DNA from: Phytobacter sp. V91
GTDB lineage: Bacteria; Pseudomonadota; Gammaproteobacteria; Enterobacterales; Enterobacteriaceae
Direction of reading: 5' to 3'
NCBI RefSeq assembly: GCF_965644225.1
Contig: NZ_CBFFRJ010000026.1
Coordinates: 21,276-45,275, forward strand
Length of the DNA stretch: 24,000 bases
Shown: one piece after another, positions 11,933 through 20,348 of the stretch
Numbering within the stretch: position 1 is the stretch's first letter
Layout: every line of letters starts with the position of its first letter
Made by a program: the position numbers and the translations under genes
The notes under the pieces: generated by a model
Databases searched by the model: none
What the model saw: the letters and a program-made list of their open reading frames with translations, nothing else
Told to the model about the DNA's origin: nothing

Positions 11933-13243
11933 TCAATTGAGCTCGATCCGCTTGATATCGCCGATGATAAATATGTAGGCCACCAGACCAATCAACGCCG
12001 TTAAGCCTATGTAGATGAGCGCGTAAAAGAAGTTACCGGTTCCGGCAATAATAAAGCCAATAATTAATGGTGTAATGATCGACGCCATATTGGCACAGAA
12101 ATTAAATATTCCGCCGGTCAGCCCCGCCATATTTTTTGGCGCGATGTCAGAAATTAATGTCCAGCCCAGCCCGACCATTCCCTGACCAAAGAAAGCAACC
12201 GACATAATGACGATGACCAGCGTATTATTGGACACCCAGTTAGCGCTTATAATAAAGCTTGAGAGGAGCAATCCGCTAATGATCGGCAGTTTTCTGCTGA
12301 TGTTTACCGAGGCGGTTTTTTTCAGCAGTTTATCGGATACCCAGCCGCCGAAAATGATGCCAATCGCGGCGGCGAGAAACGGCCAGGTGGCGAACAAACC
12401 CACATGAAGCCAGGGTAACTGGCGCTCCTGAGCCAGATACGTGGGGAACCAGGTCAGAAAGAAAACCAGTGTGGTATTGCCAGCATACTGCCCTAAACTT
12501 GCGCCGATGACCTGCCGACAACAGAGCAGACGTTTGGCATCGGACCAGTTAAAGGGAATATTTTGATTCGCGCTCTCTTTATTTCCAATGCCAATGTAAT
12601 CCAGCTCTTCTTTATTTACGGTCGTAGATTCATGTGGCTCACGGTAATATTTCCACCACACGAAGGTGAATGCGATACCTAACCCGCCGGTAATGAAAAA
12701 GAGCGTTCTCCAGCCATGATGTTCGAGAATTAAAAATAACAGTGGGGAAAATGCAGCAAGGCCGATATATTCCCCAACGGTGTAGGTGGCGGTTGCACGG
12801 GCTCGCTCATGCTGGGGAAACCATGTCCCGACCACCCGGCTGTTGACCGGAAAACAGGGCGCTTCACTGATGCCCAGCCCTAAGCGAAAGAGCAGTAAGG
12901 ATTTTAAACCCAGGGCAAAGCTCTGCATAAGGGTGAAGGTTGACCAGAAAAAGATGGCAAGGGCATAGGTTATTTTGTTGCCGAACCTGTCTAAAAACAT
13001 GCCTCCGGGGATTTGCGCCAGAGCATAGGTCCAGGCAAAAGCAGAGAAGACGATCCCCATCATTGCCGGATCAATATGCAGTTCGCTGGTCAATGCTGGC
13101 GCGACAATACCCAAAATGGTGCGGTCGAGATAATTAATCATTGTGCCAACAGATAATAACAATAAAATTACAATTCTCGCCCGGCTTCTTTTCCTCGTCG
13201 CGGTTAACGGCACGGTGCTTTCCTGATTCGCAATTGTCCTCAT
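11933..13243 (-). CDS. MFS transporter, anion:cation symporter (ACS) family, DgoT/GudP/ExuT-like organic-acid permease (436 aa)
   Basis: The ORF reads INYLDRTILGIVAP...MGIVFSAFAWTYALAQIPGGMFLDRFG...GISEAPCFPVNSRVVGTWFPQHERARA...LTWFPTYL, parallel to E. coli DgoT motifs ([61 protein letters not shown]). I chose the ATG at 13243 (AGGA, 7-nt spacing) over the GTG at 13249. Confidence 0.85.
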   Translation of the reverse strand: MRTIANQESTVPLTATRKRSRARIVILLLLSVGTMINYLDRTILGIVAPALTSELHIDPAMMGIVFSAFAWTYALAQIPGGMFLDRFGNKITYALAIFFWSTFTLMQSFALGLKSLLLFRLGLGISEAPCFPVNSRVVGTWFPQHERARATATYTVGEYIGLAAFSPLLFLILEHHGWRTLFFITGGLGIAFTFVWWKYYREPHESTTVNKEELDYIGIGNKESANQNIPFNWSDAKRLLCCRQVIGASLGQYAGNTTLVFFLTWFPTYLAQERQLPWLHVGLFATWPFLAAAIGIIFGGWVSDKLLKKTASVNISRKLPIISGLLLSSFIISANWVSNNTLVIVIMSVAFFGQGMVGLGWTLISDIAPKNMAGLTGGIFNFCANMASIITPLIIGFIIAGTGNFFYALIYIGLTALIGLVAYIFIIGDIKRIELN

Positions 13244-13267
13244 GTGCACATCCTTTAAAGTTTAAAA

Positions 13268-13299
13268 TATTTTTGCATATATCTGTATATGCAAAAATA
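13268..13299. promoter_or_regulatory. Perfect inverted repeat (14-bp arms, 4-bp spacer) 25-56 nt upstream of the ACS transporter start; candidate operator or 5'-UTR hairpin
   Basis: TATTTTTGCATATA-tctg-TATATGCAAAAATA, read directly from the sequence. Confidence 0.4.
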
Positions 13300-13380
13300 C
13301 TTTCTGGATCCGCTGCTTCTCATATTATGAACCGTTTTGTTACATACTGATCACAGTGCCCGGTAATATTTTGATGTTAC

Positions 13381-13406
13381 ACGGTTATTTTCGCTTTTAT
13401 AACCGT
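13381..13406. promoter_or_regulatory. Dyad ACGGTTAT-N10-ATAACCGT, candidate LysR-type regulator binding site
   Basis: 8-bp perfect arms, 65-90 bp upstream of the LysR gene start. It has the interrupted AT-rich-centred dyad form typical of LTTR boxes. No experimental support. Confidence 0.35.
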
Positions 13407-13470
13407 TGGATATTTCCTTTATGCTATATTTAATGCAGCGATTTTATCTTATATTATACGGTCAAAAATA

Positions 13471-14367
13471 ATGAACCTAAAGCAACTTTATTATTTTAAG
13501 CGACTCTCAGAAACCGAGCATTACACTGAAGCCGCCTCCAGCCTTTTCATCACCCAACCTTCGCTAAGTCATGCTATCTCTGAGCTGGAGAAAGAGCTTG
13601 GCGTATCGTTGTTTGCCAGAAAGGGTCGCAATGTCGAGATCACGCAAAATGGGAAACGCTTTCTTCCCTATGTTGAAGATGCCCTGACGTCGTTAGAGAA
13701 CGGGCGTATGACGTTGCAAAAAAGTGGAATGGATAGCAAAGAAAATATTCGCATTGCTTTTATCTATACCATGGGTGAATATGTTGTTCCGCAGCTAATT
13801 CATCAATATTCTGTAACGCCTTCCCGCCATAATGTAACCTTTTCTTTTACTCAGGGAACGTCACTGACGCTTTTACAGGAGTTAAAGTCAGGGCGTACCG
13901 ATCTGGCTATTTGCTCTTATATTGCCGATGAGCCGGATATCGATTTTATCCCCATCATTCAGCAGGAGTTGGTTGTCGTCACGGCGAAGGAACATCCGCT
14001 CGCAAAATTATACAAAGATGATGTCGACCTTGTTGAAACTATTCATTACCCCTATATCTACTTTTCCGAAAATAGTGGCTTACGGCCTTTTATCGATAAC
14101 GTATTTATTCAGCAGAAGCTGGTGCCGGATATTGCCTGCTATGTTGAAGAGGATACGGCGATGGCGGGACTGGTGAGCATTGATTACGGGATTGCCATCA
14201 TGCCGCGAATTTCTGCACTCGCGAACTACAATGTGCATATCCTGGCGATCAAAAACAAAATACCCCCCCGGTTTATCTATCTGGCGACCATGAAAGACAG
14301 GGTGCTTTCTCCTGCAATTCAGTCGTTTAAAAATTTTGTCATTGATGACAGCCAGAAGAAGCGTTAA
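13471..14367 (+). CDS. LysR-family transcriptional regulator (298 aa)
   Basis: N-terminus MNLKQLYYFKRLSETEHYTEAASSLFITQPSLSHAISELEKELGVSLFAR is a canonical LTTR wHTH. A C-terminal substrate-binding domain is present. Divergent from the ACS transporter gene. Confidence 0.9.
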   Translation: MNLKQLYYFKRLSETEHYTEAASSLFITQPSLSHAISELEKELGVSLFARKGRNVEITQNGKRFLPYVEDALTSLENGRMTLQKSGMDSKENIRIAFIYTMGEYVVPQLIHQYSVTPSRHNVTFSFTQGTSLTLLQELKSGRTDLAICSYIADEPDIDFIPIIQQELVVVTAKEHPLAKLYKDDVDLVETIHYPYIYFSENSGLRPFIDNVFIQQKLVPDIACYVEEDTAMAGLVSIDYGIAIMPRISALANYNVHILAIKNKIPPRFIYLATMKDRVLSPAIQSFKNFVIDDSQKKR

Positions 14368-14369
14368 AT

Positions 14370-14400
14370 CAGTTGCCCGGAGCCTGGCTCCGGGCAACTG
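14370..14400. terminator. Bidirectional terminator hairpin between convergent lysR-family gene and aroD paralog
   Basis: cagttgcccggagc-ctg-gctccgggcaactg, a perfect 14-bp stem with a 3-nt loop, followed by ttt on the plus strand. Confidence 0.7.
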
Positions 14401-14412
14401 TTTCACGGGTTA

Positions 14413-15180
14413 TCAGGACAGGATATCCATCATTTCACGCAACTGAGTAATGGCTATCTGACCCGGCGCCGAGGCCTGACCTGCAGTACCGAATGTCATG
14501 GCTGAACCAAAAATTCGCCCCGTCACACGGCTGACGCCGCCCAGTTTTGCCATCGACATGGTGATGACAGGGCGTGTTGCATAGTGCTCTTTCATTTTCA
14601 GAGTGGCGGACAGTAGCGTCAGCACATCACGCGGCGACTGCGGCATGACTGCAATTTTCGGCAGATCGGCACCGAGATCCTGCATACGGCGAAGGCGATA
14701 GACAATATCTTCCTCGGCAGGGGTTTTGTAGAAATCATGGTTACTCATGATAACTTTCACCCCGTTTGCATGAGCTGTATCGATCACCGTGCGGATCTGC
14801 GCTTCATCGTTGAACAGCTCAATATCAATCAGATCGACCAGCCCACTCTGGGCGGCCTGACGATTGAGTGCAAAGTAGGCCTCGTCACTGATTTCCGTTT
14901 CGCCGCCTTCACGTTTGCTGCGGAAGGTAAACAACAGCGGGATATCTGCCAGCAACTGGCGAATTGCAGCCAGTGCCTGCTGAACCTGCCCTGCGTCTCT
15001 CACCTGAGTAAAATGGTCAACGCGCCACTCAATCAGATCGGCCCCGGCGCTGGTCAGCGAACGGGCATTGGTTTGCAAATCGTCGAGGGTTTTACCGATC
15101 AGCGGTACGCAGATCAGGGTTTTCCCCTCCTGGAAGGTAATATTTTTAACCGTTACTGTATTTATCATTTTGGTATCCAT
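14413..15180 (-). CDS. Type I 3-dehydroquinate dehydratase paralog (255 aa; an alternative start at 15168 would give 251 aa)
   Basis: Collinear with E. coli AroD: EWRVDHF, LLFTFRSKREGGE, VIMSNHDF (catalytic His) and PKIAVMPQS (Schiff-base Lys), ITMSMAKLG and ASAPGQI. Probably not the housekeeping aroD, given its island context. Confidence 0.9.
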   Translation of the reverse strand: MDTKMINTVTVKNITFQEGKTLICVPLIGKTLDDLQTNARSLTSAGADLIEWRVDHFTQVRDAGQVQQALAAIRQLLADIPLLFTFRSKREGGETEISDEAYFALNRQAAQSGLVDLIDIELFNDEAQIRTVIDTAHANGVKVIMSNHDFYKTPAEEDIVYRLRRMQDLGADLPKIAVMPQSPRDVLTLLSATLKMKEHYATRPVITMSMAKLGGVSRVTGRIFGSAMTFGTAGQASAPGQIAITQLREMMDILS

Positions 15181-15200
15181 AATTCTTTTTCGCTGAGCTT

Positions 15201-16415
15201 TCAGACGGTCGCCGTGACGCGCGCAGTTTTGCTGGCAGCATAAACCTGAAACTGACGATACCCGATGTACAGGGCGATCACAAAGCCGATGATGGCGATA
15301 ATTAAATCAAACCACATGATGCTGGCGATGCTAATTTTCGACAGTTTTGCGGTAATCAATGGGATGGTGAAGCTGGCAATGCTACCGGCGGTGTAGAAGA
15401 TCCCTGTGGCTTTGCCTTTCCCGTTCGGGAAGCTCATTGCCATAATGGTTGCCCCCAGTTGCAGCACGCCTCCCGCCGCCGAGAAACCAATGACAAATGC
15501 GAAACCGGTCACAATAAATGCAGTGGGATACAGGCAAACCACCAGTAATGAAACCATTGAAATACCGGTATAGATAACCATCGCCACGGCAGAATTGATG
15601 ACGTTTTTCACAAAGGTTGCAGTGAAGAACACACAGGTCAGTGAACCCGCGGTGTAGATACTCAGCAATTTTATGGCTGATTCGTAGGGGATCCCGGCAA
15701 CATACTGACCGTACTGCGCCAGCCACTGGCTGACCAGATAAAAGGTCGCCATGCCAATATAACCATACAGCGTGAAGATCAGCATATCCAGGCTACTGGC
15801 ATCAGACTTCTGCCCGGCGCTGACGGTGGATTTTTCGACGCTCTGCTTTGCTGCCCGGTGATCGGGGAAGGGCATTTTTATCAGATAGACAGCGCTGATT
15901 ACGATCAGTATTGCCGCAATAATAAATGACCAGCCAAACCACATATCGGCCCAAAGTAACAGACCGATGATAAAGGGCAGCAGGAATTGCCCGGCAGAGA
16001 CAAAGGCCTTGATAAGTACATTGGCCCGGCTTGCCGAATTGGGGAATGCTTCCATTAACGCCGGATAGGTGCCGGAGTCGAGGAAGCTGTTCGCCATCCC
16101 ACCGAGGATGCCAAAGAAGTAGGCGATATAGATATTTTTGGTCAGCAGGATACCGAAGAAAAAGAGCAAATAACTCAGGATACCCAGATAGATAAAGGGC
16201 TTACGTCCGTAACGATCGGAGAGAAAACCCGTCACGATGGTGGCGAGTTTACCGATACCCAAAGACGAAATAACAATCGACACACCGGCCCTGTCCGTTC
16301 CCCACTGCTCCTGCAAATTCGCCATATTGAGGGTAATCAGCAGTACCCCCATGCCGTGGATCAGGTAGTTGAGATACAGCCCGGCCGCGGTCGGGATATA
16401 TTTATTTTTCATCAT
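15201..16415 (-). CDS. MFS transporter, YdiM/YdiN-like (404 aa)
   Basis: MMKNKYIPTAAGLYLNYLIHGMGVLLITLNMANL...SDRYGRKP...GGMANSFLDSGTYPALMEAFP...FYLVSQWLAQYGQ closely parallels E. coli YdiM as I recall it. YdiM is the MFS gene next to ydiB-aroD. Confidence 0.85.
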   Translation of the reverse strand: MMKNKYIPTAAGLYLNYLIHGMGVLLITLNMANLQEQWGTDRAGVSIVISSLGIGKLATIVTGFLSDRYGRKPFIYLGILSYLLFFFGILLTKNIYIAYFFGILGGMANSFLDSGTYPALMEAFPNSASRANVLIKAFVSAGQFLLPFIIGLLLWADMWFGWSFIIAAILIVISAVYLIKMPFPDHRAAKQSVEKSTVSAGQKSDASSLDMLIFTLYGYIGMATFYLVSQWLAQYGQYVAGIPYESAIKLLSIYTAGSLTCVFFTATFVKNVINSAVAMVIYTGISMVSLLVVCLYPTAFIVTGFAFVIGFSAAGGVLQLGATIMAMSFPNGKGKATGIFYTAGSIASFTIPLITAKLSKISIASIMWFDLIIAIIGFVIALYIGYRQFQVYAASKTARVTATV

Positions 16416-16423
16416 TTCGCCCC

Positions 16424-17287
16424 TTAAAAAAGGACATTCTTGACGTAATCCACCGGCATCTCTTTGCCTGTCCAGATTTCGAATGCTTTTGCGCCCTGCC
16501 AGAGCATCATTCCCAGGCCGTTCAGCGTGCGGCAGCCTTTCTTCTCAGCCACTTGCAGCAGGTGGGTTTTGCGCGGGTTGTAAATCACGTCAGAGACGAT
16601 CAGGTCCGGGCGCAGGAAGCTGTCATTCGGCAGCAGCATCTGGCCTTCAAAGGGTTTCATGCCGACACCGGTGGCATTGGTGAGGATCACGCTGCTGTCG
16701 ATTTCCTGGCGCAGTTTGTCGTGGTCGGCAATATCAAACAGGTGGATTTCGCAGTTCGTGTTATTGCGGATCTTGGCGACGGTTTGCTCTGCGTTAGCGA
16801 AGAATTTATCTTTCTGGTTGAAGATAGAGATCTCTTTCACACCATCCAGCGCAGCCTGCACACAAAGGGCTGTTGCTGCGCCGCCTGCGCCCAGTACGGT
16901 CATTTTTTTGCCGATGATATCAATGCCGTCTTCAGCAAGTGCGCGCATGTAGCCGGTGCCATCGGTAATGTGGCCGGTTAACACGCCGTTATCGTTAACA
17001 ACGGTATTGACCGCGCCAACCAGTTCCGCCGCCGGGGACAGTTTGTCCAGATACTGGCAAATCGCGGTTTTGTTCGGCATGGAGACGTTAAAACCCCGTA
17101 GTTTCAGCGCGCGGAAGCCCTGGACAACGTCTTTCAGCTCCTGGTTGTCCACTTCAAACGCCAGGTAGACATAATCCAGGCCCAGATGGGCGAAAGCTTC
17201 ATTGTGCATGGTCGGCGACATGCTGTGACGAATCGGAGTAGCAATCAGTCCAATCAGCTCAGTGTGACCAGTAATACGTTCTGCCAT
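16424..17287 (-). CDS. Quinate/shikimate dehydrogenase, YdiB-like (287 aa)
   Basis: Collinear with E. coli YdiB: ELIGLIATPIRHSMSP, YLAFEVDN, NVSMPNK (catalytic Lys), LVGAVNTVVND, TDGTG (catalytic Asp), GAGGAATA dinucleotide loop, and IFNQKD aligning to YdiB LFNRRD (an acidic residue suggests NAD use). GAGGA RBS. Confidence 0.9.
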   Translation of the reverse strand: MAERITGHTELIGLIATPIRHSMSPTMHNEAFAHLGLDYVYLAFEVDNQELKDVVQGFRALKLRGFNVSMPNKTAICQYLDKLSPAAELVGAVNTVVNDNGVLTGHITDGTGYMRALAEDGIDIIGKKMTVLGAGGAATALCVQAALDGVKEISIFNQKDKFFANAEQTVAKIRNNTNCEIHLFDIADHDKLRQEIDSSVILTNATGVGMKPFEGQMLLPNDSFLRPDLIVSDVIYNPRKTHLLQVAEKKGCRTLNGLGMMLWQGAKAFEIWTGKEMPVDYVKNVLF

Positions 17288-17332
17288 GATAAAGTCCTCA
17301 ATTATTGGAAATGGAATTATTTTTCGTTGCCG

Positions 17333-19330
17333 TCAGCCCAGGACACCCATGTCCTGCAGGGATTCCAGCACGTTGCGCCCTTCGCGCACGCCATCGATAA
17401 TGCGGCGCGCCATCACGCTATCGCCGATATTCATTACCGGGATCTGCCGGGTGCTGGCCCAGTGCTGGACTTCATCAAGGCCGTTTCTGTTGGCGCGCAT
17501 TCCCAGGCATACAAAGCCGTAATCAAAGGGAATGTCATAAGCGCGGTCGGCTTTTTTGACGCTGAAATGGTCCGGATGGACGCTGACGAGTTGTGTTTGC
17601 ATATGCTGTTCCACCTGGTGTTCATCCAGCATGGCCAACATGGCGTTTTTGGTGATGATATCCAGATCGCGTCCCGGGGCATCCTGCATCTCAATCAGGG
17701 TGGTTCGGGCCCCGCGGCCGGAGAAATATTCGATAACGTCCAGGCCTACTGCGCCGCCGCCCACCACGGCGATGCGCTTACCTTCGGCATCGGCAAACCG
17801 CGCAAGATGATGGATCATGCCGGTAATGGAGAAGACATTGCCGCCTTCGACATCAATGCACTCCAGCAGGCCGCTAATCGGTGGTAACAGGGGAGTGGAA
17901 CCGGTGGCATTAATGATCAGGTCAGGATGCAGTTCTGCGATCGTTTCAACACTGGCTTCCTGGCCTACCTGAAGGAGCAGGTTATTGAGGCCTGAGATAC
18001 GGTTTTTCATAAACTGCGGGAAGTCAGCGATGCGCTTTTTCTCCGGCAGCAGCGATATTTCGCTGGCCAGGCCGCCAAGGCTGTTTCTTTTCTCCAGCAA
18101 CCAGGTATGGCAACCCACTTCCGCAGCGGTGCAGGCCGCTTCCATCCCTGCGGTTCCGGCTCCAATCACCACGACACGGGTATCACGGTTAACTTTGCGC
18201 TGTTTGTAGGCATCGCCATGAATAATGTCCGGGTTGATTGAGCAACGCAGGGGGCGAGAGCGGGCAATACGGTGATCGGCGCAGCCAATATTGCAGGAGA
18301 TGCATTTACGCATCAGACGCTCGTTGCCCTGCTGCACTTTCTGTACCCATTCCGGCTCGGCAATCAGCCCGCGACCAATGGCGATAAGGTCGGCATCACC
18401 GCTGGCAATAATATCTTCGGCGACTTTTGGGGTGCGGATGTTGCCCGCGATCACGGTGGGTTTATTAAACTTCTCGCGCACGGCGCGGGAGAGGTACCTT
18501 TTCCAGCCATCCTCGAGAGACATCTGGTCAATTTGCAGATTGAGGCTGTCGTTTTGCGCGGCGGAAACGTTGAGGATGTCGACCTTATCCTGGCAGAGCG
18601 CAAGCATGCGCAAGGTATCATCCAGCGTATTCCCGCCTTTGAGGAAATCATCAGCGCTAAAACGCAGGCTGATGGGGAAGCGGGGGCCGACGCTGGCGCG
18701 CACTTTGTCCACCACCAGGCAGAGCATTCTGGCGCGATTTTCGACGTCGCCGCCAAATTCGTCGGTTCGCTTATTGAACAGCGGGGACAAAAACTGGCTG
18801 ATTAAATATGAGTGACCGGCATGAATTTCCACGCAGTCAAAACCGGCTCGTTTGACGCGTTCAGCCGCTTCGCCAAATTTATCCACCGCATGATAAATTT
18901 CTTCCCGGGTCATTGCCCGTGGAATATTACCGTTCTTTTTCGACGGGGTTGTTGAGGAAGAGAGCGGCTGTTCGCCATTCAGGCGATAAGGATAAGCGGA
19001 AGCACCTGCATGGTTAAGTTGAATAGAGACACAGGCGCCATGTTTATGTAATGTTTCCGTTAATTTAAATAAGCCGGGAATATATTGATCGTTATCGATA
19101 CGTAACTGTGTGGTGCCATTAGAGGCAAAAGGAAAATCGATGCAAATATTCTCAATTGTAATTAAGCCAGTACCCCCTTTTGCCCGCAGCTCGTAGTACT
19201 CAAGCTGTTCGCCGGAGACTTCACCGTTCAGGGTCGCCATGTTGGTGCCCATCGGCGGCATGATGATGCGGTTTTTCAGCGTCATACCGTTGATGGTAAG
19301 CGGGCTAAAAAGGTGTTGATAGTGGCTCAT
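17333..19330 (-). CDS. NAD(P)H-dependent Fe-S flavoenzyme of the 2,4-dienoyl-CoA reductase (FadH) / 2-enoate reductase / BaiCD-BaiH family (665 aa)
   Basis: N-terminal OYE-like barrel (LFSPLTINGMTLKNRIIMPPMG, QLNHAGAS, VEIHAGHSYLISQFLSP..NKRTDEFGG). Cys cluster CISCNIGC-x12-C, comparable to FadH CIGCNQAC-x11-C. Two Rossmann motifs (VVVIGAGTAGMEAA and IAVVGGGAVGLDV). Start set at the ATG at 19330 (GGAGAGG RBS, matches family N-termini) rather than the track start at 19453. Confidence 0.85.
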   Translation of the reverse strand: MSHYQHLFSPLTINGMTLKNRIIMPPMGTNMATLNGEVSGEQLEYYELRAKGGTGLITIENICIDFPFASNGTTQLRIDNDQYIPGLFKLTETLHKHGACVSIQLNHAGASAYPYRLNGEQPLSSSTTPSKKNGNIPRAMTREEIYHAVDKFGEAAERVKRAGFDCVEIHAGHSYLISQFLSPLFNKRTDEFGGDVENRARMLCLVVDKVRASVGPRFPISLRFSADDFLKGGNTLDDTLRMLALCQDKVDILNVSAAQNDSLNLQIDQMSLEDGWKRYLSRAVREKFNKPTVIAGNIRTPKVAEDIIASGDADLIAIGRGLIAEPEWVQKVQQGNERLMRKCISCNIGCADHRIARSRPLRCSINPDIIHGDAYKQRKVNRDTRVVVIGAGTAGMEAACTAAEVGCHTWLLEKRNSLGGLASEISLLPEKKRIADFPQFMKNRISGLNNLLLQVGQEASVETIAELHPDLIINATGSTPLLPPISGLLECIDVEGGNVFSITGMIHHLARFADAEGKRIAVVGGGAVGLDVIEYFSGRGARTTLIEMQDAPGRDLDIITKNAMLAMLDEHQVEQHMQTQLVSVHPDHFSVKKADRAYDIPFDYGFVCLGMRANRNGLDEVQHWASTRQIPVMNIGDSVMARRIIDGVREGRNVLESLQDMGVLG

Positions 19331-19654
19331 TGTTCCTCTCCACAGGATATCCCGAAGGCCGACATGCGGTACTTCTGATATATCCAAAATTAATATGTTT
19401 CTGCGGGAAAGATAACGAGGGGGAAGAGGGAAAAATAATGCTTTTTTTTGCATGAAACCATAGGGTCTTTCTATGCAATTAACCGTTTTTTCACATGCTG
19501 GTATTTATATATTAAATAATTAATCCGTATTTTTACTTGTGCTGGCGAGTTGATACAAAAATGTCAGCGGTCAGGCGGGAATGAATGGCAAAACGGCGAT
19601 AACTTATTTTTAGAAAATCAAATATCCTTTCTTATGGTATGGATTAATGTCGAT

Positions 19655-19676
19655 AATTGTGATGTAGATCACTATT
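19655..19676. promoter_or_regulatory. Near-consensus CRP-like site at the island/leuD junction
   Basis: aatTGTGAtgtagaTCACTatt versus the consensus aaaTGTGAtctagaTCACAttt: 9 of 10 core positions. Lies about 335 bp upstream of the flavoenzyme start codon, so its target promoter is uncertain. Confidence 0.4.
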
Positions 19677-19692
19677 ATGCCGGGCGAAAATT

Positions 19693-19722
19693 AAACAAAA
19701 ATGCCCGGCGCTTTGGCCGGGC
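19693..19722 (-). terminator. leuABCD operon rho-independent terminator
   Basis: On the minus strand: gcccggc-caaagc-gccgggc followed by atttttgttt, 20 nt downstream of the leuD stop. Confidence 0.75.
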
Positions 19723-19742
19723 AGAGATTATCAGGCGCGCAA

Positions 19743-20348
19743 TCAGTTCATAAACGCAGGCTGATTGTTCTCGTAGGCTGCAATGGCCTCTTCATGCTGC
19801 AAGGTCAGTCCGATGCTGTCCAGGCCGTTGATCATGCAGTGGCGACGGAAGGCATCAATGGTAAAGCTGTAGGATTTGTCTCCGGCTTTCACCACCTGGG
19901 CTTCCAGATCTACTTCAAACGAGATACCCGGCCTGGCGTGGACCAGGGTAAACAGCTCATCGATCTCTTCATCGCTCAACTTCACCGGCAGCAGTTGGTT
20001 GTTAAAACTGTTGCCATAGAAGATGTCTGCGAAGCTCGGCGCAATCACGGTTTTGAAGCCGTAGTCTGTCAGCGCCCAGGGCGCGTGCTCACGTGATGAA
20101 CCGCAACCAAAGTTCTCCCGGGCCAGCAAAATGGAAGCGCCTTTATATACCGGGAAGTTCAGCACAAACTCCGGGTTCGGTACTTCTCCCTTATCATCAA
20201 GGAAGCGCCAGTCATTAAACAGATGTGCGCCAAAGCCGGTGCGCGTGACCTTCTGCAAAAACTGTTTTGGAATAATGGCGTCGGTATCGACGTTGGCGGC
20301 ATCCAGCGGGACAACCAGGCCAGTATGTTGGGTATATTTCTCTGCCAT
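19743..20348 (-). CDS. leuD: 3-isopropylmalate dehydratase small subunit (201 aa)
   Basis: Homology starts at [33 protein letters not shown] (ATG at 20348). The track ORF is extended by 14 codons into leuC. Confidence 0.95.

Follow-up and report, generated by a model that had tools for sequence, protein, structure and literature searches.

What does a large iron-sulfur (Fe-S) flavoenzyme do in an operon otherwise made up of quinate and shikimate genes? The question is raised by a 24-kb stretch of DNA from Phytobacter sp. V91 (the window), in which the gene of a predicted ene-reductase with an Old Yellow Enzyme (OYE)-type barrel is followed by genes for a YdiB-like quinate/shikimate dehydrogenase, a YdiM-like permease of the major facilitator superfamily (MFS) and a type I 3-dehydroquinate dehydratase (dehydroquinase). 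Few plant acids reach soil, silage, cider and the colon in larger amounts than quinate and shikimate, whether free or bound in chlorogenic acids. That fermenting bacteria reduce them was described 50 to 70 years ago, and the conversion of quinate to cyclohexanecarboxylate and hippurate in the gut is a classic observation. In the literature searched, the only enzyme with an assigned gene for the C=C reduction step was an unrelated respiratory reductase of Eggerthella and Sutterella. An earlier reading of the window from its sequence alone had proposed that the operon oxidizes and dehydrates these acids and then reduces the resulting C=C bond. We consider a reductive quinate/shikimate pathway reasonably probable, taking together the variants in which the flavoenzyme would act on 3-dehydroshikimate or directly on shikimate.

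A first line of evidence comes from the genes that accompany the reductase in other genomes. Orthologs with at least 55% identity (range, 55 to 92%) were collected from one genome per species, giving 80 loci, and partner genes were counted by tblastn with the window proteins within ±8 kb of the reductase gene. A dehydrogenase was present in 72 of the 80 genomes and a type I dehydroquinase in 67, with both found in 66; a LysR gene was nearby in 70 and a YdiM/YdiN-like MFS gene in 58. The dehydrogenase gene lay less than 400 bp from the reductase gene in 46/80 genomes. As the local genes come in 38 different orders, the association has been upheld through repeated rearrangement rather than inherited as synteny. 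The sequence-only reading had asked whether the trio of reductase, YdiB-like and AroD-like genes recurs across taxa, and it does so in Enterobacteriaceae, Orbaceae, Listeria, Bacillales, Lactobacillales and Clostridia. The association of the reductase with quinate genes goes far beyond chance, and these genomic comparisons argue strongly for functional coupling. Pairs of reductase and dehydrogenase that lack a dehydroquinase also exist, e.g., in Erysipelothrix (locus L067) and in the second reductase paralog with its own dehydrogenase (see below), which argues that the dehydrogenase makes or uses the substrate or the product of the reductase. In Syntrophotalea carbinolica (L084, 7905-12913), the genes around the reductase ortholog encode a LysR protein (divergently), a shikimate kinase and a dehydroquinase of type II instead of type I, so that shikimate metabolism remains linked to the reductase even with different partner enzymes.

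The closest relatives of the window reductase are encoded by two Enterobacteriaceae metagenome-assembled genomes (92% identity), followed by those of Phytobacter and Kosakonia (88 to 89%), the Klebsiella oxytoca complex and K. pneumoniae ATCC 13883 (84 to 85%) and Pantoea (70 to 77%). The 80 loci come from Enterobacteriaceae, Erwiniaceae and Orbaceae; from one Desulfovibrio; from Listeria, Paenibacillus and other Bacillales; from Enterococcus, Vagococcus, Isobaculum and Sporolactobacillus; from Clostridium, including the acetogens C. ljungdahlii, C. ragsdalei, C. carboxidivorans, C. drakei and C. magnum; and from Anaerostipes, Blautia, other Lachnospiraceae and Erysipelothrix. A further search yielded orthologs in Carnobacterium, Liquorilactobacillus mali, L. 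uvarum and L. nagelii, Loigolactobacillus coryniformis and isolate UCMA15818, and none from L. plantarum among the best 120 matches. The L. coryniformis locus comprises a LysR gene, an insertion sequence (IS) element and the dehydrogenase, dehydroquinase and reductase genes. In Liquorilactobacillus mali (L087, 3877-12001), the ortholog adjoins genes for ApbE, a flavin adenine dinucleotide (FAD) synthetase and a reductase with FMN_bind and FAD_binding_2 domains, with shikimate dehydrogenase, LysR and MFS genes 8 to 10 kb off; two kinds of C=C reductase occur in this one neighborhood.

The presence of the family in Lactobacillaceae recalls older biochemistry. Carr et al. are said to have described in 1957 that cider lactobacilli reduce quinate to dihydroshikimate, and according to Whiting and Coggins (1971-74) L. 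plantarum reportedly goes on to 3,4-dihydroxycyclohexanecarboxylate. Liquorilactobacillus mali and isolate UCMA15818 are presumably of cider origin. The predicted products (dihydroshikimate and, with the second module described below, 3,4-dihydroxycyclohexanecarboxylate) and the predicted hydrogen-acceptor role agree with this biochemistry of the lactobacilli, and we found no assignment of genes to the reductive quinate metabolism of these bacteria in the literature searched.

A second line of evidence is regulatory. The effector domain of the LysR protein encoded next to the operon matches that of Listeria Lmo0488/QuiR (PDB 5TED) with an E value of 3e-69, against 7e-22 for the next LysR structure, and the protein is 53% identical to the Listeria regulator over its length. 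Three of about ten residues of the QuiR ligand site were compared: I98 and F196 are the same, and T131 is replaced by Ser, as in QuiR2. By sequence, then, the window protein is an ortholog of the shikimate-binding activator QuiR. A 2025 preprint summarizing earlier work states that QuiR activates the Listeria operons qui1 and qui2 with shikimate as the co-inducer and that shikimate was co-crystallized in QuiR.

The QuiR-like regulator has a candidate binding site in a box of the LysR type located upstream of the reductase gene (Table 1). On the coding strand, the box starts approximately 145 nt upstream of the start codon, and it is kept in 8 of 9 aligned enterobacterial sequences, the Edaphovirga box being farther upstream. 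The core ATAG-N7-CTAT is found 149 nt upstream of Listeria lmo0489, compared with 142 to 149 nt in the enterobacterial loci and 309 nt in Edaphovirga. It occurs at most 400 nt upstream of the reductase gene in 48/84 loci, with 93 boxes altogether in 1.44 Mb, a strong enrichment at this position; in several other loci it heads an operon in which the reductase gene is not the first. The stand-alone reductase genes of five Paenibacillus and Robertmurraya loci also retain the box. Together with the orthology of the regulator, the conservation of the box across phyla indicates that the operon belongs to a QuiR-type regulon, and by analogy with Listeria, shikimate probably induces it.

Listeria qui1 is thus the closest described relative of the window operon. 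It consists of the divergent quiR/lmo0488 followed by lmo0489, lmo0490 and lmo0491 and is induced by shikimate (2025 preprint). The two operons share the reductase (61% identity), the dehydrogenase (approximately 80%), the dehydroquinase (57%), a QuiR regulator and a box at a matching distance. They differ in that the window operon contains a YdiM-like permease, its LysR gene is convergent, and a second MFS gene is present; moreover, no qui2/QuiC2 partner was found in the window. The published role of qui1 is protocatechuate biosynthesis. A check for characterized homologs in the same context, suggested in the sequence-only reading, led to a published operon whose reductase is itself uncharacterized: published work draws the qui1 and qui2 reductase genes as "uncharacterized" and says of lmo0489, an OYE, that its "reactions ... 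remain to be elucidated".

We then considered what kind of reaction the reductase may catalyze. Although the mechanically defined open reading frame (ORF) extends to position 19453, the ATG at 19330 is the better start because GGAGAGG lies 6 nt upstream, this block is kept in other genera, and the orthologs begin at that Met. Pfam identifies Oxidored_FMN (PF00724; residues 7-336, E = 1.4e-73) followed by Pyr_redox_2 and Pyr_redox. The motif C343-x2-C346-x3-C350-x12-C363 conforms to the CX2CX3CX11-13C cluster motif that is found between the domains of Fe-S flavoenzymes (2024 review). Its four Cys residues are invariant in 12 sequences from three phyla, as are the dinucleotide-binding motifs GxGxxG at 390-395 and 524-529. 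The protein therefore combines an OYE-type TIM barrel for flavin mononucleotide (FMN), a 4Fe-4S motif and C-terminal FAD/NAD(P)H domains, as Fe-S flavoenzymes (the FadH/Enr/BaiCD/BilR/DZNR family) do. This three-domain architecture is shared with Enr/FldZ, FadH and the 2-naphthoyl-coenzyme A (CoA) reductase NCR; the alignment with NCR (6QKG) is full length, and that with FadH (1PS9) covers residues 4-543. An AlphaFold model (pLDDT 76, pTM 0.55) is poor at the cluster-binding loop, as expected without cofactors. Its Foldseek neighbors, over roughly 656 to 686 columns, include NCR (TM 0.72), trimethylamine and histamine dehydrogenases and FadH (TM 0.70); the predicted structure confirms the fold class only.

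Residues H170, H173 and Y175 are invariant in the 12 sequences, and the catalytic strand reads VEIHAGHSYL in the window protein, VEIHAAHGYL in TOYE (3KRU), VEVMGSEGYL in FadH and VEVCAIVGYL in NCR. The HAGHSY segment aligns with HAAHGY of TOYE and has the His-x-x-His/Asn-x-Tyr pattern of OYEs. The His pair is thus kept as in the enone-reducing OYEs TOYE and YqjM, whereas the CoA-thioester enzymes FadH and NCR lack it. Such a pair is typical of enzymes that polarize a ketone, aldehyde or carboxylate oxygen. The N-terminal barrel is 37 to 38% identical to the "thermophilic-like" OYEs TOYE and YqjM (TMt 0.89 to TOYE by Foldseek), as opposed to 23 to 25% identity of the reductase to FadH and NCR. 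The motif fits an alkene activated by a carbonyl or carboxylate group rather than by a CoA thioester.

Several names that could be given to the protein were rejected. It is not FadH, to which it is 23% identical and which has MGSEGYL in place of the IHAGHSYL segment with His170, His173 and Tyr175; the active-site residues of FadH in that segment are Glu164 and Tyr166. The database name "2,4-dienoyl-CoA reductase" carried by homologs is probably wrong, as the CoA enzymes FadH and NCR are without the His pair. The name "NADH oxidase" cannot describe a general O2-dependent role because the carriers include the strict anaerobes Clostridium, Anaerostipes, Blautia, Desulfovibrio and Syntrophotalea. 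The best NCBIfam model is BaiCD (NF041087), but with a score of 458 bits against a cut-off of 825 the protein is not an ortholog, and no bai genes occur in the window. Nor is the protein a respiratory flavin reductase: the FAD_binding_2 match is marginal (residues 386-424, 22.9 bits) and reflects the Rossmann motif only, in a protein composed of OYE and Pyr_redox_2 domains. Eggerthella lenta and Sutterella wadsworthensis, which reduce the C=C bond of shikimate to hydroshikimate as a respiratory electron acceptor (Little et al.), rely on a fumarate-reductase-type flavin enzyme for respiratory growth that is classed with fumarate and urocanate reductases, whereas the window enzyme is a predicted cytoplasmic, NADH-linked OYE/Fe-S protein with no respiratory-coupling signal.

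The partner enzymes bear out the family labels given in the sequence-only reading (FadH-type flavoenzyme, YdiB-like, YdiM-like, type I dehydroquinase), which agree with Pfam, NCBIfam and E. coli identities. The dehydrogenase passes the cut-offs of the shikimate dehydrogenase model NF001313 (564 versus 431 bits) and of the quinate/shikimate dehydrogenase model NF009390 (358.6 versus 349). It is 51% identical to E. coli YdiB, whose structures it matches with E values of 1e-99 to 1e-103 (1NPD, 1e-99), and is probably NAD dependent. The match to Listeria Lmo0490 (PDB 3TNL/3TOZ) is far closer (approximately 80% identity, E = 7e-154), while the neighboring proteins are much less similar to their Listeria counterparts (reductase, 61%; dehydroquinase, 57%; LysR, 53%). 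This difference points to cross-phylum transfer and/or an unusually strong constraint on the enzyme. The dehydroquinase scores 264.6 against a TIGR01093 cut-off of 139.3. It shares 52% identity with AroD of E. coli and matches that of Salmonella with an E value of 1e-86; the catalytic His143 and the Schiff-base Lys170 of the Salmonella enzyme correspond to its His148 and Lys175, so the two residues earlier described as intact are indeed in place. The YdiM-like permease is proposed to import quinate and shikimate or to export the product. The second MFS transporter resembles anion:cation symporters and D-galactonate transporters, scoring just below the TIGR00893 cut-off (376 versus 395 bits). 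It accompanies the island in Phytobacter, Klebsiella, Kosakonia and Pantoea, and related MFS genes occur in clostridial loci.

Gene content, cofactor motifs, linkage across phyla, orthology of the regulator and conservation of the box are the observations from which a pathway can be assembled. In the presence of shikimate, the QuiR-type activator would bind the ATAG-N7-CTAT box and turn on the four-gene operon, and the MFS permeases would bring in quinate and shikimate and perhaps export the product. The YdiB-like NAD-linked dehydrogenase would oxidize the C3 hydroxyl, converting quinate to 3-dehydroquinate and shikimate to 3-dehydroshikimate, and the dehydroquinase would remove the C1 hydroxyl of 3-dehydroquinate to give the enone 3-dehydroshikimate. 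NADH would then deliver two electrons that reach FMN by way of FAD and the [4Fe-4S] cluster, a path taken from that of FadH (2024 review), and the flavoenzyme would saturate the C1=C2 bond, His170 and His173 holding the carbonyl and Tyr175 acting as the proton donor. The same dehydrogenase could finally reduce the 3-oxo group, yielding dihydroshikimate (3,4,5-trihydroxycyclohexane-1-carboxylate). The net result would be the consumption of one NADH per quinate or shikimate, i.e., a cytoplasmic fermentative electron sink; in formal terms, quinate would be reductively dehydroxylated at C1. Saturation of the ring C=C of 3-dehydroshikimate by the reductase is a tentative assignment that we place somewhat below an even chance. 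Of the earlier reductive scheme, the coupling to quinate/shikimate enzymes stands, through the linkage of the trio, the QuiR-type regulator, the box and the OYE-type site; we infer its chemistry, including inducer, substrate, direction, product and physiological role, the substrate from gene context and motifs.

The locus of Clostridium sp. AWRP (L083) suggests that the chemistry may be repeated. It begins with genes for LysR, dehydroquinase, dehydrogenase, reductase and an AP_endonuc_2 protein and continues with a second Fe-S flavoenzyme, a second shikimate dehydrogenase paralog, two MFS proteins and two esterases. The second flavoenzyme (640 amino acids) shares 31 to 32% identity with the first as well as the His/His/Tyr motif, and the AP_endonuc_2 protein is orthologous to Listeria Lmo2234 (PDB 2G0W, E = 7e-96). 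This second module of dehydratase, reductase and dehydrogenase (L083, 12076-15821) is found in 13 loci, namely, 12 of the 80 (L033, L036, L038, L040, L056, L058, L064, L066, L070, L074, L075 and L077) plus that of AWRP; its carriers are some Clostridia, Lachnospiraceae and Vagococcus, and it is often fused to the first module. From its gene position, we take Lmo2234 to be QuiC2, the dehydroshikimate dehydratase of qui2. The lead gene of the second module then corresponds to the first gene of Listeria qui2, Lmo2234 being the sole qui2 member confirmed here. In Listeria, lmo2234 adjoins the divergent quiR2 (lmo2233) just upstream of qui2 (2025 preprint). The window contains the first triad only (dehydroquinase, reductase and dehydrogenase) and no second module.

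The occurrence of two parallel dehydratase/ene-reductase/dehydrogenase triads suggests two rounds of reductive dehydroxylation. The second turn would take off the C5 hydroxyl by the beta-elimination that turns unsaturated 3-dehydroshikimate into protocatechuate. The window module may then represent the first turn of an iterative oxidize-dehydrate-reduce pathway that, after a second turn, would lead to 3,4-dihydroxycyclohexanecarboxylate and underlie quinate reduction by lactobacilli; we regard this extension as possible but doubtful. Listeria would encode the second turn apart from the first, in qui2. If true, it would explain how gut microbes convert dietary quinate to cyclohexanecarboxylates, the precursors of urinary hippurate, and protocatechuate in Listeria would be the outcome when the reductive branch is idle, with QuiC2 acting on an unsaturated analogue of its real substrate. 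The two AWRP esterases, alpha/beta-hydrolases distantly similar to tannases and arylesterases, are encoded at the end of the locus (L083, 19172-21084). They hint at quinate esters of the chlorogenic acid type as a natural feedstock.

A number of points weigh against a reductive pathway. The Klebsiella aroZ and aroY genes, reportedly described by Draths and Frost, would provide a dehydroshikimate dehydratase route elsewhere in the genome, which could use up the 3-dehydroshikimate made by the island. His/His/Tyr sites of OYEs are promiscuous and do not identify a substrate, the reductase model is of only moderate confidence, and no assayed member of the reductase clade was found in the literature searched. 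In 7/80 genomes neither partner enzyme is near the reductase, and the partnerless genes of Paenibacillus peoriae (L025) and Robertmurraya (L031) have no substitute dehydrogenase beside them, their neighbors being agmatine deiminase-like, CN hydrolase, glycerate kinase and other genes. Finally, protocatechuate accumulates in Listeria cultures fed shikimate, and the published model has it formed by way of qui1 and qui2; dihydroshikimate goes unreported there, in a text that gives no oxygen conditions for these cultures, and seems never to have been looked for (2025 preprint).

In a variant of the reductive pathway, the flavoenzyme would be a 2-enoate reductase proper that acts on shikimate itself and relies on the carboxylate for activation of the double bond, so that the dehydrogenase and the dehydroquinase only turn quinate into shikimate. 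Clostridial 2-enoate reductases of the same architecture reduce alpha,beta-unsaturated carboxylates in this manner, shikimate is the known QuiR effector, gut bacteria reduce the shikimate enoate to hydroshikimate, although with another enzyme family, and the net stoichiometry would be that of the 3-dehydroshikimate route. What this leaves unexplained is the tight pairing of dehydrogenase and reductase where no dehydroquinase is present, as well as the dehydrogenase that the second reductase paralog has of its own. The His/His/Tyr site and the 37 to 38% identity to enone-reducing OYEs suit a ketone-activated alkene at least equally well, and we consider direct reduction of shikimate rather unlikely. 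Reduction of the enone is favored, if weakly, because the dehydroquinase-free pairs persist and the site resembles those of enone reductases. Somewhat less likely still is that the island provides uptake and an upper pathway to 3-dehydroshikimate for a dehydratase elsewhere, feeding protocatechuate formation or classical catabolism, with the flavoenzyme in an accessory role such as reoxidation of the NADH from the dehydrogenase or detoxification of quinones and enones. The orthologous Listeria operons have been interpreted in this way in print, QuiC2 (Lmo2234) having dehydroshikimate dehydratase activity and protocatechuate accumulating; the reading is also plausible for Klebsiella given its aroZ and aroY genes, databases do label homologs "NADH oxidase", and quinones and reactive enones are substrates of OYE-type enzymes. 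No dehydratase is encoded in the window, though, and an O2-dependent NADH oxidase fails as an explanation in strict anaerobes. In addition, generic detoxification would be an unlikely task for a dedicated NADH-FAD-FeS-FMN protein of 665 amino acids that is kept at 55% identity or more in different phyla and stands under a shikimate regulator, and the conserved reductase, listed as uncharacterized by the Listeria authors themselves, is left unexplained.

The esterases of the AWRP locus would fit with yet another role, that of a hydroxycinnamate (caffeate or p-coumarate) reductase located next to quinate genes since hydrolysis of chlorogenic acid frees caffeate and quinate together. Some family members do reduce cinnamates, but neither the window nor the Listeria or Loigolactobacillus locus contains an esterase, the regulator is of the shikimate-sensing type and not a phenolic acid sensor, and the one-to-one pairing of reductase paralogs with their own shikimate dehydrogenase paralogs would have no reason; we hold this role to be quite improbable. 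The enzyme might even run in the oxidative direction, desaturating or aromatizing its substrate like BaiCD in one bile acid step, for instance to form gallate, which is 3-dehydroshikimate minus 2H. BaiCD works either way, and OYEs can aromatize cyclohexenones (PMC4034509). Yet no gallate decarboxylase or downstream genes were present in the contexts inspected, NAD+-linked desaturation is unfavorable for fermenters in need of reductant sinks, and gallate production by these organisms was not found reported in the literature searched, making an oxidative role very improbable. What probability remains falls to explanations outside those considered here.

The reductive pathway that we prefer has counterparts in known systems. 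The bai pathway follows the same logic, with a ring hydroxyl oxidized to a ketone, elimination of water, reduction of the C=C bond by Fe-S flavoenzymes of the same architecture and re-reduction of the ketone. It differs in that its substrates are steroids and CoA esters instead of a small free acid and that its dehydratase is BaiE instead of a type I dehydroquinase, to which the low BaiCD score noted above can be added. Fe-S flavoenzymes reduce ring enones in bile acid 7-alpha-dehydroxylation (BaiCD/BaiH) and isoflavone metabolism (DZNR), and of the family "the vast majority have unknown functions" (2024 review). FadH and NCR, at 23 to 25% identity, are CoA dependent. The E. coli cluster ydiM-ydiN-ydiB-aroD similarly groups a permease (62% identity), a dehydrogenase (51%) and a type I dehydroquinase (52%), but it lacks both an Fe-S flavoenzyme and a QuiR-type regulator, and the window dehydrogenase is far closer to the Listeria enzyme than to YdiB. 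In the E. coli locus L086 (695-5774), this cluster is followed by the CoA-transferase gene ydiF (truncated here, with an adjacent IS1). An acyl-CoA dehydrogenase and electron-transfer flavoprotein set (ydiO, ydiQRST) presumably comes next in that region; the same quinate genes could here adjoin another kind of system for C=C reduction, one that depends on CoA.

We found no paper in the literature searched that assigns the C=C reduction of quinate, shikimate or dehydroshikimate to this enzyme family and no study of the enterobacterial island. The novelty thus lies in the substrate and pathway predicted for an enzyme family that is already known, within a type of operon whose response to shikimate is known as well. 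If correct, it would provide a substrate for a widely distributed Fe-S flavoenzyme clade, explain two unassigned genes in the Listeria qui operons and supply a marker gene for diet-derived metabolite flux in metagenomes. It would also predict that plant-derived acids offer an additional NADH sink, and with it a fitness trait under anaerobic conditions, to the K. oxytoca complex, Phytobacter, Pantoea, Listeria, enterococci and acetogens. A 60-year-old biochemical observation would thereby become testable in easily handled organisms.

The features of the locus are listed in Table 1. The four minus-strand genes are separated by gaps of only 45, 8 and 20 nt in the ORF listing, exactly as had been noted from the sequence. 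That description covered the four genes and left out the LysR gene, the second MFS gene, the promoter box and the terminator hairpin; the full unit is a six-gene island of approximately 7.8 kb (about 11933-19701) inserted between setA and leuD.

Table 1. Features of the quinate/shikimate-type island and its borders in the 24-kb window
Feature	Position	Strand	Description
setA	10638-11891		Gene flanking the island
Second MFS transporter, 436-438 amino acids	11933-13249	-	MFS_1, 1.7e-60; divergent from the LysR gene
Palindrome TTTTTGCATAT-N6-ATATGCAAAAA	13270-13297		Just upstream of the second MFS gene, in the divergent region between it and the LysR gene
QuiR-like LysR regulator, 298 amino acids	13471-14367	+	Effector domain match to Lmo0488/QuiR
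Hairpin, likely bidirectional terminator and operon end	14370-14402		Perfect 14-bp stem in the gap where the dehydroquinase and LysR genes converge
Type I 3-dehydroquinate dehydratase, 255 amino acids	14413-15180	-	DHquinase_I, 1e-81
YdiM-like MFS permease, 404 amino acids	15201-16415	-	MFS_1; 62% identical to E. coli YdiM, 36% to YdiN
YdiB-like quinate/shikimate dehydrogenase, 287 amino acids	16424-17287	-	Shikimate_dh_N and SDH_C; NCBIfam cut-offs
Fe-S flavoenzyme, predicted ene-reductase, 665 amino acids	17333-19330	-	Pfam, NCBIfam; OYE FMN barrel, 4Fe-4S motif, FAD and NADH domains
Promoter-proximal blocks A8-GCATTATTTTT and CTCGTTATCTT	19411-19449 (approximate)	-	Conserved alignment columns between box and start codon
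LysR-type (T-N11-A) box CATAG-N7-CTATG	19459-19475		Single exact match in the 24-kb window
leuD intrinsic terminator	19702-19723	-	8-bp stem with 7 G-C pairs, then TTTTTGTTTA
leuD	From 19743 onward (gene end at 19743)		Gene flanking the island; ORF listing

The leuD terminator parts leuABCD transcription from the island and forms its upstream boundary, and approximately 370 nt of AT-rich DNA separate it from the reductase gene. At the other end of the operon, the hairpin has a folding energy of -31.2 kcal/mol (z = -5.9), and none of 200 shuffled sequences was equally stable. It was detected by folding rather than by a generic scan for sigma-70 promoters and terminators, which gave counts at or below the shuffled expectation in the island, with the leuD terminator alone being convincing. 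The LysR gene is transcribed toward the end of the operon and forms a divergent pair with the second MFS gene. On one side, the remainder of the window encodes, by Pfam, araB, araC, a VTT/DedA-type membrane protein, a thiamine ABC transporter, sgrR and setA, and on the other side leuDCB. The absence of a dehydroshikimate dehydratase from the island, claimed earlier, was confirmed for the 24-kb window: neither such a gene nor one for protocatechuate cleavage was found by Pfam analysis of the other ORFs or by tblastn with the QuiC2 ortholog, and with no AP_endonuc_2/QuiC2-like match the window does not hold a classical qui/qsu plus pca cluster.

The G+C content is 0.43 to 0.49 at both ends of the island, against 0.53 to 0.60 in most of the flanking DNA. 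The island has no counterpart in 5,347 E. coli genomes, where matches consist of the sgrR and leu flanks plus one 129-bp ydiM match; these flanks are 4.3 to 5.6 kb apart among the matches listed, the intervening stretch of approximately 7.8 kb being missing. In Klebsiella grimontii, the same six genes occupy the same insertion site.

Some elements of the noncoding regions may contribute to regulation. The ATAG-N7-CTAT box is not present between the second MFS gene and the LysR gene. The palindrome found there recurs in Phytobacter and Klebsiella, with weaker conservation in Pantoea, and its half-sites are unlike the ATAG box; it may be a second operator, or a second regulator may act there. 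Examination by eye only of the region upstream of the reductase gene for FNR or CRP sites revealed one TGTGA half-site, which is not conserved in Klebsiella. The blocks A8-GCATTATTTTT and CTCGTTATCTT are candidates for the activation site/-35 and the -10 elements. Between these blocks and the Shine-Dalgarno sequence, the leader (19331-19400) includes a short stretch rich in G and C, CCGCATGTCGGCCTTCGGG, which aligns with a palindromic segment, GCCGTACGGC, in Klebsiella; a small leader hairpin could form here.

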